Source of the DNA: an uncultured Methanosarcinales archaeon
GTDB taxonomy: Archaea > Nanobdellota > Nanobdellia > Woesearchaeales > CAYMBN01
NCBI GenBank assembly: GCA_964388715.1
Contig: CAYMBN010000009.1
Location: 1-53,727 of the forward strand
Direction of reading: 5' to 3'
DNA length: 53,727 nucleotides
In this document: positions 21,148 to 38,229 of the stretch, one piece after another
Layout: each line of letters begins with the position of its first letter
Position numbering within the stretch: position 1 is the stretch's first letter
Position numbers and translations under genes: made by a program
Notes under the pieces: generated by a model
Databases searched by the model: none
Told to the model about the DNA's origin: nothing
Seen by the model: only the letters and a program-made list of their open reading frames with translations

Positions 21148-22932
21148 TTATAAATCTTTTACAATTTCCTTAGCTTTTTCTTCAATCATTTTTTTATTTG
21201 GCAATGCCCTTAATTTCTTCAATATTCCTTTTTTTCTGTATATTGGTGTTTCAGTTAATACTTTTTCAGCTCCCTCAGGTTCTCCTCTTTTTAAAGCATC
21301 TATTATTTTGTTTTTAACTTCCTCAACAGTGTCTTCAATGTTTATTATTTCACTAAATTTAAGGTGAAATGTTTTTTCAGATTTTTTTACCAAAAATAAA
21401 ATACCAGCACTTTCAACTTGCTTAACCTTAAATTCAACACCTTCTCTTAACTCAACATTTTTATTACTTAGTAAATTTGATGTTTGATCATGATGTTCCT
21501 TATCATATTTTTTAATTATTCTTACCAATTGTCCTCTAGTAAAAAACCCCTTACCTTCCTTAATCCTTTCAACTTTATTTCCATTAACCTTTTTAAACAC
21601 ATTATTATACCATCCCTCTTTTTTGCTTAAAAACAATATTAACTTATGAAGTATTGCAAGATCATGCCTAATCTTAATATAAAATTTAACTTCATGTTTC
21701 TCAAATGATTCCTTTAACGATTTAGCATTGTCTATAAGATTTTTATTAACCTCTTTATCAAAACCTTCTCTCAACTTATTTAAAACATCTTTTTGATTAT
21801 TATGTGATCCACCTATCAATTCACTTTGTGAATTAATTAACTTCTTAAACTCTTCAAGATCACTTTCTAATGCAGCTAACCTTGTTTTTAATTCCTCAAC
21901 AACCACGTTGAATCCTTCTTTGAATTTTTCATTGGTTTCTTCAACCTTTTCAGGATCAACTTTTTTAAGGAAAACAACCAATCCTTTCTTATATTCCTCA
22001 AGTATTTCCTCTACTTCTTTATACATAGCAACGTAATTATGAACATTCTTAGATAAAACCTTAACAGCTTTCTCATCATAACCAATAACCTTTTTATCAA
22101 GCTTTAACAACTCCTCATTTATTTTTAATATATCCTCAACCAATTTATTTAACTCATTAATTAATTTTAAATTTTTAACTTTTATAAATTCTTTATTTCT
22201 CTGAACCTCTGTTTTCCTTATATATTCTATCTGTGACATGTTCATTCCTTTTTTAAGAAGTTGTTTAACCTCTTCTTCATTATCAGTATAACTCAAAACC
22301 TCTTTATGTTTTTCACCTTTTCCAGTAATTGCAGCTTCTATTAAATCACCTGGGAAATTTTTTCTTATTTTTTCCTCAATTTCATCCTTAAATTCCTTAT
22401 TTTCTTCTTTAGCCATTGCCTTTTTCCTTTTTCCATTAAACCCTAAACATAATTTTAAATGTTCTTCAACCAATCTTTTCTTTTCCTTTTCTAATTCACC
22501 AATCTTACTAACCTTCTTCTCCATCTTTTTAACTTGATGCTCAGAAACCTTTTTCTCCATCTTCCTTCTTCCAAAAACAAATGCAAGAGCTACTAAAGCA
22601 ACTGCACTACCTTTCAAAAAAATTGGTTTACCAGCAGTCTTCTTAACACTTTCCCATACACTTTCTACTTCACCTGGTTCCATCTTTAATTCAATCAATT
22701 CAACAAGATCATTATACTTATCTTCACCAATATATTCCTTAACTTCTTGCACCGTAATATAATTTTTAATCTCATCCAATAAATCCTGATTTTCAGTTTT
22801 TTTTGCTCCTGCAATAGACTTTTCAAGAGCATCCAAAAACCTTTCTTTAACAATATTTTCTTCAGCTACAACAAAGATATTCATAACTAATAAAACCATT
22901 ACAAACATCCACATAAATCTCTTAAATTTCAT
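21148..22932 (-). CDS. Signal peptide, short ectodomain, single TM and long cytoplasmic coiled coil
   Basis: N-terminal MKFKRFMWMFVMVLLVMNIFVVA; TM GSAVALVALAFVF followed by GRRK; ATGA overlap with the upstream gene. Confidence 0.8.
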   Translation of the reverse strand: MKFKRFMWMFVMVLLVMNIFVVAEENIVKERFLDALEKSIAGAKKTENQDLLDEIKNYITVQEVKEYIGEDKYNDLVELIELKMEPGEVESVWESVKKTAGKPIFLKGSAVALVALAFVFGRRKMEKKVSEHQVKKMEKKVSKIGELEKEKKRLVEEHLKLCLGFNGKRKKAMAKEENKEFKDEIEEKIRKNFPGDLIEAAITGKGEKHKEVLSYTDNEEEVKQLLKKGMNMSQIEYIRKTEVQRNKEFIKVKNLKLINELNKLVEDILKINEELLKLDKKVIGYDEKAVKVLSKNVHNYVAMYKEVEEILEEYKKGLVVFLKKVDPEKVEETNEKFKEGFNVVVEELKTRLAALESDLEEFKKLINSQSELIGGSHNNQKDVLNKLREGFDKEVNKNLIDNAKSLKESFEKHEVKFYIKIRHDLAILHKLILFLSKKEGWYNNVFKKVNGNKVERIKEGKGFFTRGQLVRIIKKYDKEHHDQTSNLLSNKNVELREGVEFKVKQVESAGILFLVKKSEKTFHLKFSEIINIEDTVEEVKNKIIDALKRGEPEGAEKVLTETPIYRKKGILKKLRALPNKKMIEEKAKEIVKDL

Positions 22933-37087: not shown

Positions 37088-38229
37088 AGCTCTTCCTCCA
37101 ATTTTTTCATTTCCTCTTTACTTACCTCTAGTCCGAACTCAATTCCATTCCAGACTTTTTCTATAAAATACCGAAGAGTTTGGTCAGTGATGCTAAACAA
37201 ACTATCTTCTTTAGAAATTAAATCAACATCAATTAATCTAGTCAACAAATTTTTAGTAACAGGAGCACTCCTGTAAATCATTCGAGAAACTTCAGACAAT
37301 CTTAAACCTTGTTCTGAAGCCAAAACCTTTAATATACTTTTTAATAATCCACGACCTCTTGCCCTGGACAATGAATTAACAAGAATAGACTCACAAGCAT
37401 TATGTATTATACCAGTTTTAACTAATGTCTGAGAAATAAAAGCTTTTTTAACATTTTTATATTTTGCATAACCAAGTGCAAGTGCATAAGCATAAATAGG
37501 AATACCTTGTGATAATCTAAATATTGCATCAACCTCTTTATCCCCAACTTTAACAATCTTTTCAACAAGCTCCTTTACCTTCTGTCGATCCAATCCCTCA
37601 ACAAGATGTTGTTCAAACCCAGAACAAATCTTTTTCATTAACTCAACAGCAGAACCAGAAACAACAAACATTGTATTTTCAAATTTCAGCTCATTAAAAA
37701 AAGAAAAAAAATCCTTAATCTGTGAGAAATTCTCAAAGTCAAGGACGTGCCAAAATTCGTCTAAAAACAACACAACTTTTTTACCAAGTTGTTCAGAAAA
37801 ATTAAATCCTAACTCTAATAACAATTTATGATCTGGTTTTATTTTCTGTAGCTCGTTATAAACAAGTTCAATTGTTTTCTGTGCTTTCTTAGGTAACTCA
37901 CTCCTAATTTCCATTAAATCTTCTATCCTTGTTCCAACCGGCTTCTTAAAAAAATAAGAACATAGGCTACTGATAAAGGCAACAGAAAAATCTTCTGGCG
38001 TGATGCTTGCCTTTTCAAAATCAAAATAAGCAGCCACAACATCTTGCTGCTCAAGAACTCGCATATAATTTTTTATAATTGTTGTTTTGCCTATGTATCT
38101 CTTTCCAATTAACGCTATGTTAGACTTTTTACCATGCTTAAAATCCTCTACTCTTTTCCGAAGTAATTCTACAAAGAAATCTCGTCCTGTAAATAGTCCT
38201 AATTCTTCCTTACTTAATTCAGGGTTCAT
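37084..38229 (-). CDS. Archaeal AAA/ATPase_2-family P-loop ATPase with C-terminal winged helix
   Basis: FTGR motif, Walker A GKRYIGKT, Walker B VVLFLDEF, VVSGSA, SQGIPIY, C-terminal LSEVSR...L.RL...DLI.K wHTH. Confidence 0.88.
   Translation of the reverse strand: MNPELSKEELGLFTGRDFFVELLRKRVEDFKHGKKSNIALIGKRYIGKTTIIKNYMRVLEQQDVVAAYFDFEKASITPEDFSVAFISSLCSYFFKKPVGTRIEDLMEIRSELPKKAQKTIELVYNELQKIKPDHKLLLELGFNFSEQLGKKVVLFLDEFWHVLDFENFSQIKDFFSFFNELKFENTMFVVSGSAVELMKKICSGFEQHLVEGLDRQKVKELVEKIVKVGDKEVDAIFRLSQGIPIYAYALALGYAKYKNVKKAFISQTLVKTGIIHNACESILVNSLSRARGRGLLKSILKVLASEQGLRLSEVSRMIYRSAPVTKNLLTRLIDVDLISKEDSLFSITDQTLRYFIEKVWNGIEFGLEVSKEEMKKLEEEL

Follow-up and report, generated by a model that had tools for sequence, protein, structure and literature searches.

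The window analyzed here covers positions 1-53,727 of the forward strand of contig CAYMBN010000009.1 (assembly GCA_964388715.1), a stretch of 53,727 nucleotides (nt) from an uncultured archaeon assigned to the Woesearchaeales, and it carries a seven-gene membrane-protein operon, g1 to g7, in which g6 encodes a giant protein with domains of murein hydrolases. All coordinates are positions within this window, and all seven genes lie on the minus strand. The operon opens with g1 (37084-38229; 381 amino acids, aa), a P-loop ATPase of AAA_14 / ATPase_2 type with a C-terminal winged-helix-like region, followed by g2 (34481-37087; 868 aa), a polytopic membrane protein, and g3 (32788-34479; 563 aa), a soluble, helix-rich and coiled-coil-prone protein. 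Next come g4 (32015-32791; 258 aa), built on a module of a signal peptide and four transmembrane helices (SP+4TM), the bitopic protein g5 (29820-32021; 733 aa), g6 (22929-29811), which is readable in two parts with a run of 100 N between them, and a second bitopic protein, g7 (21148-22932; 594 aa). The genes meet at junctions of -4 nt (g1/g2, ATGA), +1 nt (g2/g3), -4 nt (g3/g4, ATGA), -7 nt (g4/g5), +8 nt (g5/g6) and -4 nt (g6/g7, ATGA). All six junctions are 8 nt or shorter, as are 7 of the 21 other same-strand junctions of the window; at about one-third each, six tight junctions running are unlikely to be a product of chance and go beyond the general compactness of this genome. The operon of seven coupled same-strand genes that the initial annotation placed at 21148-38229 is real, with junctions of -7 to +8 nt and three ATGA overlaps.

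The cluster is in archaeal chromosomal DNA and shows no sign of chimerism. Genes for S28e, L7Ae, S10, an aEF1A-type elongation factor, EF2, a class I Glu/Gln-tRNA synthetase (GluRS) and TrmB-type regulators flank it on the same scaffold, and this presence of archaeal housekeeping genes on both sides bears out the view of the host as an archaeon. A gene for tRNA-Gln lies 424 nt upstream of g1. The G+C content stays within 0.29-0.32 for every scaffold piece as well as for the stretch that encodes the hydrolase, and the correlation of tetranucleotide profiles between pieces is r = 0.93-0.98. The objection that the contig might be chimeric with bacterial or phage DNA was checked and finds no footing in this uniform composition, nor were phage or plasmid hallmarks seen. 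Two runs of exactly 100 N, at 19945-20044 and 24754-24853, indicate a scaffold of three pieces, of which the middle one (20045-24753) comprises the downstream gene g8, g7 and the C-terminal part of g6.

Domains and topology of the seven proteins

The N-terminal readable part of g6 (24854-29811; 1652 aa) begins with SP+4TM (29314-29811, by hydropathy) and continues through an SLT/GH23-like domain (28798-29025, aa 263-338, by Pfam SLT and motifs), helical stretches, a LytM-type M23 domain (26983-27270, aa 848-943, by Pfam and PDB matches), acidic and Thr-rich linkers, and repeats with two cysteines each. The C-terminal readable part (22929-24753; 607 aa) holds the end of a repeat that spans the gap, a full two-Cys repeat at its aa 194-306 and an acidic C-terminus. 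A regular expression and a hidden Markov model (HMM) of the units place the repeat region at 23835-26766, with units at nt 26467-26766, 26026-26313, 25210-25524, 24609-25059 (across the gap) and 23835-24173, whose HMM domain E-values range from 4e-23 to 5e-40. The 100-N run at 24754-24853 represents either an assembly gap or a masked stretch, and across it the two frames are shifted by one base relative to each other. With half of a repeat unit on either flank of the gap, g6 is likely a single gene of roughly the length given earlier (~2260 aa); the continuous protein of that size in the initial annotation is thereby probably correct as to one gene, but what can be read is 1652 + 607 aa in different frames with 100 N between.

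The M23 assignment is solid at the sequence level. PF01551 matched aa 848-943 with 58.9 bits (cut-off 28.7; E 6e-16), and the nine PDB sequences that matched this region at E<=0.01 all belong to M23 enzymes, with 2gu1 and ShyA at the top. The HxxxD motif (HSGID, 848-852), YLHL (898-901) and the HxH motif (HLHFE, 936-940) of g6 align with residues of 2gu1 and ShyA, and we take HxxxD, HxH and the central His to be the zinc-binding and catalytic residues. The SLT assignment is borderline: PF01464 scored 20.2 bits in the whole 1652-aa part, under the cut-off of 21.3, and rose to 24.8 bits (E 1.8e-5) in a scan limited to aa 200-420. The region contains E263 in an NEV motif 16 residues before GLMQ at 279, NIKKGSDYL at 299 and AFFDG at 323, and GLMQ, the N..G..YL pattern, AFFDG and the upstream Glu presumably correspond to those of family-1 lytic transglycosylases. 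A phmmer search of the SLT region against the PDB gave no lysozyme-like match, and a single-sequence AlphaFold2 (AF2) model of aa 165-480 was too poor to be used (mean predicted local distance difference test score, pLDDT, 46.4). Of the SLT and M23 pair named in the initial annotation, the M23 domain thus stands with its motifs intact, and the SLT domain falls on either side of the threshold depending on the segment scanned.

A signal peptide followed by four transmembrane (TM) helices, as in g4 and g6, predicts that the whole downstream chain lies outside the cell, which for g6 would amount to an extracellular chain of ~2100 aa. Both hydrolase domains would then be external, which counts against the objection that they might be cytoplasmic, and the M23 motifs are intact. 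We consider it probable that g6 is an extracellular, membrane-tethered murein hydrolase. In an archaeon without murein, such an enzyme would have to find its substrate in the wall of some other cell, of which a bacterium is the simplest case.

The anchor of g6 is not its own alone. The SP+4TM module of g4 is 39% identical to aa 59-160 of g6 (E 2.7e-20), and an alignment of four module sequences has invariant D51 (TM1), K69, E72 and P104-F-V-K-N108 (TM3). A profile of the module also matched the N-terminus of the g2 family collinearly over 134 columns (hhalign probability 92.7%, E 4e-7; reversed-sequence controls, 1.3-2.6%), indicating that three of the seven proteins (g2, g4 and g6) share the anchor. 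The ~100-residue two-Cys repeat is likewise common to two proteins, with one copy in g5 (aa 53-148, nt 31578-31865; repeat HMM E 5e-25) and four whole copies in g6 plus the one across the gap. Both the 4TM anchor and the two-Cys repeat had been proposed as shared modules and both hold up, the repeat for g5 and g6; the cytoplasmic helices proposed as a third shared module gained no support from sequence comparison.

The hydropathy layouts of g2, g4, g5, g6 and g7 agree with those described earlier. In g2, SP+4TM leads into an extracellular loop that contains a W-E motif and Cys; ~5 more TM segments come next, and the protein ends in a ~470-aa helical cytoplasmic tail. In g4, SP+4TM is followed by a ~95-aa extracellular helical tail, with Cys at 161 and 172. 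g5 consists of a signal peptide, an ectodomain, a TM segment near aa 283-300, a K/R-rich stretch and a ~430-aa cytoplasmic helical domain, and g7 of a signal peptide, a ~70-aa ectodomain, a TM segment at aa 102-122, an RRK-rich stretch and a ~470-aa cytoplasmic helical domain; the basic stretch after the TM segment in both predicts that the long tails are inside the cell. Neither g1 nor g3 has a TM segment by hydropathy, and g3, which matched no Pfam family, has stretches that are helix-prone by a composition proxy.

An AF2 model of g2 from a 20-sequence alignment reached a mean pLDDT of 59.3; the 10-residue blocks of the membrane part lie at 59-91 (mostly 76-91), a single helical hairpin on the cytoplasmic side is also modeled with confidence, and the remainder is poor. 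Foldseek returned no match of this model to the PDB at E<=0.001 (best E 0.69), so the g2 family is without a recognizable solved relative; a Vipp1/PspA-like match to the hairpin (E 1.0) was generic and was set aside. Searches of the PDB with the g2-family profile and with the SP+4TM-module profile gave chance-level matches only (coiled-coil chains at E>=0.003 and the TM domain of a pentameric channel at E>=0.05, respectively), and phmmer against the PDB found nothing for g5 or g7. In the ESM Atlas there was no usable match for g2, and the look-alikes of g4 are hypothetical Nanobdellota proteins with sub-threshold scores of 0.80-0.81, which serve as a lead only. Within g2 we also saw a second match to the 4TM module at aa ~134-325 (hhalign probability 18.6%, E 1e-3; reversed controls <=1.8%), by which an internal duplication of the module is weakly suggested.

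The identity of g1 as an ATPase, as first annotated, is confirmed by Pfam matches above cut-off to AAA_14 (31.5 bits; cut-off 27) and AAA_22 (28.3 bits; 27) and by its Walker A (GKT) and Walker B (DEF) motifs, which are kept in the homologue from a related locus, L002 (see below). It compares with the archaeal ATPases of PF01637 (ATPase_2) that carry a winged helix in having a P-loop, a Walker B motif and a C-terminal winged helix-turn-helix (wHTH)-like region, and differs in scoring just under the family cut-off (31.5 versus 33.2 bits); we know of no function for the PF01637 family itself. Matches of g1 aa 194-342 to Csa3/CasR-type wHTH models were weak (E 0.002 in NCBIfam and 4e-4 in PADLOC). 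No solved relative of g1 was found by phmmer against the PDB, and with the PADLOC models only g1 gave single-protein matches, which were weak (the best, at E 8.8e-6, with a protein of a candidate system), so that no coherent anti-phage system emerged.

Related loci and known systems

Relatives of g2 are rare. Among 1.84 billion representative proteins searched with HMMER, 20 matched at E<=1e-3, g2 itself included, and six at E<=1e-10, with conservation over aa 1-430, the membrane part. A pattern scan with the module motifs, covering one genome per species, matched 337 stretches, of which two loci, L001 and L002, were confirmed; an earlier genome scan with g2-family patterns had given 79 pattern matches and no confirmed locus. 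A word-index homologue search with g4 and the g2-family profile returned the query or nothing, and with g6 aa 1-1000 it found nothing among 7997 candidates, results that the limited sensitivity of the tool keeps from being proof of uniqueness.

L002, on a contig from a Nanoarchaeia metagenome-assembled genome (MAG), has an operon collinear with the cluster in the window. Its g1 homologue (2092-3180; 40% identity over 369 aa, E about 1e-77) overlaps by 4 nt a g2-family gene identical to the family member P0010. After it come genes for a helical protein of 553 aa, for two more that are helical or have TM segments, and for a small protein with a wHTH. The run continues with an SP+4TM protein and a secreted, Cys-rich protein of 746 aa that contains a CarboxypepD_reg domain, and the last gene encodes an SP+TM+helical protein that aligns with the N-terminal 75 aa of g7, weakly and in a single comparison (E 1e-4). 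L001 (CAZSAD010000025.1), which is cut by the end of its contig, encodes a wHTH protein, further helical proteins and an SP+4TM fusion protein that continues into an ectodomain, a fifth TM segment and a helical tail. Another of its proteins, of 1102 aa, matches at its C-terminus the cytoplasmic end of a different member of the g2 family (E 3e-8). SP+4TM relatives of g4 are present in both loci. L001 has 27% GC, and its module and gene order are as in L002; its MAG is labeled Methanosarcinales, a label that may not reflect the true lineage. Downstream of the cluster, the two loci encode a four-TM protein of 130/132 aa that is 62% identical between them (L001 10619-11011, L002 16114-16512) and a PAC2-family protein (L001 12217-12936, L002 18955-19662); no counterpart of either was recognized in the window. 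There is no tRNA gene in L001 or L002.

Comparison with known machines gave no named system. Among 37 window proteins (9 from the cluster and 28 flanking), Pfam identified no integrase, relaxase, VirB4/VirD4, capsid or terminase. Families of type IV secretion and conjugation (VirB4-type ATPase, coupling protein, relaxase) were absent by Pfam and NCBIfam, as were a FlaI/VirB11-type ATPase, a FlaJ/TadC platform and a prepilin-like protein of the type IV pilus or archaellum, and g1 is of another ATPase type than FlaI/VirB11. These membership checks agree with the initial annotation that no named secretion system or pilus is present, and we found no evidence of secretion or of a conduit such as the trans-envelope machine that it suggested would need. 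Across NCBIfam, PHROGs and PADLOC, the cluster yielded nothing beyond M23; with PHROGs, 14 proteins gave four weak matches (E 0.0013-0.0045), one of them between the M23 region and an endolysin family.

In phage and plasmid collections (26 and 14 records), coverage of g6 was at most 15% in any record, only its M23 part matched, and g2 had no match. The M23 part is 43% identical over ~115 aa to tail-associated lysins and tape-measure proteins of Streptococcus thermophilus phages, and its other matches in these collections are bacterial M23 enzymes. The phage proteins resemble g6 in being long helical chains that carry wall-cutting domains for a local breach from outside; g6 differs in its coverage (7-10% in the phage matches listed), in having no virion neighbors and in its SP+4TM anchor. 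No att-like repeat of the tRNA-Gln gene was found apart from a single chance 13-mer.

An architectural parallel is found in Gram-positive conjugation. PrgK of pCF10, TraG of pIP501 and CwlT of ICEBs1 are wall hydrolases of conjugative type IV secretion systems that have an N-terminal membrane anchor, combine a lytic transglycosylase or muramidase with an endopeptidase in one chain, have their genes in one operon with those for a polytopic membrane protein and an ATPase, and presumably breach the wall locally so that a machine can span the envelope. g6 resembles them in being anchored and carrying two putative wall-cutting domains, with a polytopic protein and an ATPase encoded alongside. The cluster in the window differs in having no match to VirB4, a coupling protein, a VirB8-like protein or a relaxase and in its ATPase being of the ATPase_2/AAA_14 type, and g6 is about ten times larger than the conjugative hydrolases and belongs to an archaeon without murein, so that its target wall would be that of another cell.

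A candidate host-contact apparatus and its alternatives

To our knowledge, cultivated DPANN archaea all live on other archaea, and a life on bacteria has so far been argued for some of the group mainly from giant murein-hydrolase genes. To that argument the present locus adds a predicted hydrolase tethered by a module common to two of its operon neighbors, the combination of putative glycan-cutting and cross-link-cutting domains with intact M23 catalytic motifs, and a surrounding operon that recurs in other Nanoarchaeia with different ectodomains.

The enzyme class and the idea of an attack on bacteria are already in print (PMC8204110, PMC9723730, PMC12352652), so that the bacterium-directed reading of the initial annotation is plausible and partly supported but not new in its central idea. 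Castelle et al. (2021) described fam00969, giant extracellular GH23 proteins with a median of 1947 aa and a maximum of ~3000, and proposed that they serve attachment to bacterial hosts (PMC8204110). The family has a signal peptide in 79%, GH23 in 53% and a TMHMM value of 1, and among the genomes surveyed it is present in 81% of those of Pacearchaeota (n = 90) and 59% of those of Woesearchaeota (n = 196) (PMC8204110 Table S3). Compared by these descriptors only, g6 resembles fam00969, which is confined to these DPANN lineages, in its giant size, signal peptide, predicted TM anchoring, borderline GH23-like domain, lineage and proposed role in binding or breaking down bacterial walls, in episymbiosis or predation, and differs in having SP+4TM against a TMHMM value of 1; the description in the available parts makes no mention of M23, two-Cys repeats, paralogous anchors in neighboring proteins or an operon context. 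Vigneron et al. (2022) argued for predation, and large GH23 proteins of this kind are also represented there by a gene of Woesearchaeota AR20 and by Lake A MAGs (PMC9723730). Strock et al. (2025) reported that archaeal M23 enzymes of Halobacteriales can kill bacteria and noted M23 homologues, uncharacterized, in four Nanoarchaeia genomes (PMC12352652). The Halobacteriales proteins, with M23 and PG_binding_1, parallel g6 in that M23 occurs in an archaeon without murein and a bacterial target is deduced; they are small, secreted and modular, with known wall-binding domains (PMC12352652), whereas g6 has no recognized wall-binding domain, is predicted to be membrane-tethered and lies in a multi-gene membrane operon. 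In the literature covered, outside of which lay subscription journals and bioRxiv supplements, there was no description of the operon context, the shared 4TM anchor, SLT and M23 on one tethered chain, or the hydrolase-free form of the operon. What appears to be new is a conserved membrane chassis with swappable cargo, the place of a hydrolase in such an operon being apparently undescribed.

We propose that the conserved core consists of the g1 ATPase-wHTH protein, the g2-family protein, the SP+4TM proteins (g2, g4 and g6) and the helical proteins (g3, g5 and g7), and that the ectodomains, which differ between genomes, would be represented here by the g6 chain as cargo. From the membrane outward, that chain would present a GH23-like lytic transglycosylase, long helical stretches, an M23 zinc endopeptidase and at least five two-Cys repeat units, the last being candidate surface-binding modules. 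The paralogous 4TM modules and the bitopic proteins may assemble as a patch in the archaeal membrane, linked from inside to a coiled-coil scaffold, with g1 acting as an ATP-dependent regulator or assembly factor. Outside the cell, g6 could cut both glycan strands and peptide cross-links of the wall of a contacting bacterium, allowing close apposition, attachment or the release of wall fragments. In this scheme, that the proteins assemble physically, what g1 does, which polymer is cut and what the system is for are all matters of inference. The picture as a whole, a lineage-restricted membrane-protein operon of DPANN archaea of Nanoarchaeia type whose wall-cutting g6 is aimed at bacteria, seems to us evenly poised between right and wrong, and that the seven proteins form one machine is a tentative view that we hold with less conviction. 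Unlikely, in our estimate, is its strongest form, an undescribed archaeal cell-contact machine with interchangeable giant ectodomains that here bears a two-enzyme head opening the sacculus of a bacterial host.

Several observations weigh against this picture. g6 itself spans a gap in the assembly, and the SLT alignment covers profile positions 26-108 of 117, leaving the presumed catalytic Glu E263 outside. g1 resembles DNA-binding archaeal ATPases and may be a regulator only, tight spacing is fairly common in the window (7 of 21 other junctions), and no bacterial partner is known. Neither SLT nor M23 was found among the 25 proteins of L001 and L002 by Pfam, nor by tblastn at E<0.5, and the two-Cys repeat HMM matched none of their open reading frames (ORFs), so the chassis need not concern bacterial walls at all. 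In the two loci combined, significant homologues extend to g1, g2 and the 4TM module, with g7 weak; orthology of g3, g5 and the g7 tail with the helical proteins of these loci had no sequence support and stands on likeness of position and architecture. The expected synteny in relatives is thus seen in part: the core is collinear in L002 and partly so in L001, in a small sample of one relative for the core and a second in part, but the hydrolase domains and repeats are not there. A machine defined by wall degradation, as the initial annotation had it, does not fit two related loci that carry the chassis without a hydrolase, and the hydrolases look instead like cargo that can be exchanged on a membrane chassis that is itself rare and conserved.

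The same relatives would suit an explanation in which g6 is a stand-alone weapon that kills bacterial competitors or a scavenger of muropeptides and amino acids from bacteria, living or dead, and its neighbors are unrelated envelope proteins that form no machine, having in common with g6 no more than a transcript and, in g2 and g4, the anchor module. Relatives that keep the chassis without hydrolases and tight gene spacing that is not rare in this genome are in keeping with it, as are the bacteria-killing M23 hydrolases of Halobacteriales with homologues in Nanoarchaeia (PMC12352652) and the proposal that peptidoglycan is a nutrient of Pacearchaeota (PMC11537232). A fixed position on the cell surface, however, fits the anchor module that g6 has in common with g2 and g4 better than does a diffusible bacteriocin, and the two-Cys repeat common to g5 and g6 and the three ATGA overlaps within seven genes also tie g6 to its neighbors; we regard this explanation as doubtful, with some claim to be kept in view. 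The chassis might otherwise belong to a generic DPANN envelope, cytoskeleton or contact system used with any host, archaeal hosts included, for adhesion, membrane shaping or signaling, with the hydrolases a recent lineage-specific addition. Consistent with such a system are the hydrolase-free chassis of L001 and L002, their differing ectodomains, one of which is a CarboxypepD_reg-type beta-sandwich, the large cytoplasmic coiled-coil domains, and the Atlas look-alikes of g4 among hypothetical Nanobdellota proteins (0.80-0.81, a lead only). Against it, a g2 family of 20 members, self included, in 1.84 billion proteins is too rare for group-wide housekeeping, and the hydrolase protein counts as by far the largest product in this genome (a second very large protein of the contig is described below), so that we think this system distinctly unlikely.

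Two further explanations concern the origin of the cluster and the target of its enzymes. Were the cluster a mobile-element remnant, the SLT and M23 protein would be the wall-breaching part of a conjugation-like or virus-like apparatus, a notion fed by the 43% identity of its M23 part over ~115 aa to Streptococcus phage tail lysins and tape-measure proteins, by the resemblance of an anchored SLT and endopeptidase protein beside a polytopic protein and an ATPase to conjugative gene clusters, and by the tRNA-Gln gene 424 nt upstream of g1. Yet at most 15% of g6 is covered in phage and plasmid records, g2 is unmatched there, hallmark families are missing, the PHROGs matches are weak, the tRNA has no att-like repeat and no equivalent in L001 or L002, composition is uniform and the flanks are housekeeping genes. 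Given these flanks and this composition, and with no integrase, virion or conjugation families among the 37 proteins scanned with Pfam and no att repeat, we reject the mobile-element reading, which has very little probability left. It is similarly improbable that the enzymes act on a polymer other than murein, such as pseudomurein, in the case of a methanogen as host, or glycans and peptides from the envelope of the archaeon itself. M23 enzymes do cleave peptide bonds of varied cross-bridges, but SLT/GH23 enzymes are specific for the β-1,4 bond between N-acetylmuramic acid and N-acetylglucosamine (MurNAc-GlcNAc), which pseudomurein does not contain. Woesearchaeota have been proposed as partners of methanogens, as mentioned in PMC9723730; set against this, archaeal hydrolase homologues are rare in the pseudomurein-making classes (PMC12352652).

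Returning to the contact apparatus with a murein-directed g6, its consequences depend on assembly. If the proteins assemble, the operon would encode a host-contact apparatus with swappable heads, for which g2, g4 and g6 are concrete targets; if they do not, g6 would be a further example of an already reported enzyme class. Should the contact-machine reading be true, the locus would constitute direct genomic evidence for episymbiosis or predation of an archaeon on bacteria by means of a dedicated apparatus.

Further genes of the window

The same-strand run continues past g7 with four more minus-strand genes, g8 to g11 (17812-21045; 287, 136, 313 and 261 aa, g9 being cut by the N run at 19945-20044), which are a possible extension of the operon. 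All four products are soluble and of no known family, and the gaps are 102 nt between g7 and g8 and 251 nt, 100 N included, between g8 and g9. g10 and g11 (17812-19538), which matched no family in Pfam or NCBIfam, each seem by eye to be internally duplicated, with two similar halves of ~70-80 aa. On the other side, a 423-nt spacer (38230-38652) lies upstream of g1. TATA-like AT-rich boxes are visible by eye ~25-50 nt before the g1 ATG, a weak signal at 30% GC. An 85-aa ORF listed on the minus strand between g1 and the tRNA-Gln gene (38335-38592) has a sequence unlike that of a protein and is probably spurious rather than a gene.

At the left end of the window, a plus-strand gene with an open 5' end (2-10498) encodes a giant surface-type protein of >3413 aa, in which Pfam identified eight Laminin_G_3 stretches and a pentaxin-like region and which is probably the second very large extracellular protein of this contig. 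The next plus-strand gene (10509-12530) encodes a 673-aa protein of extreme Lys/Glu richness in which a unit that includes KFFHDNLGLFKTKSELKRI recurs about five times; it matched no Pfam family, and the AT skew in its region rises to 0.56. Beyond the right side of the operon, two adjacent minus-strand genes (42074-43291 and 43299-44699) are paralogues, each with a PEP-utilisers mobile domain at its end.

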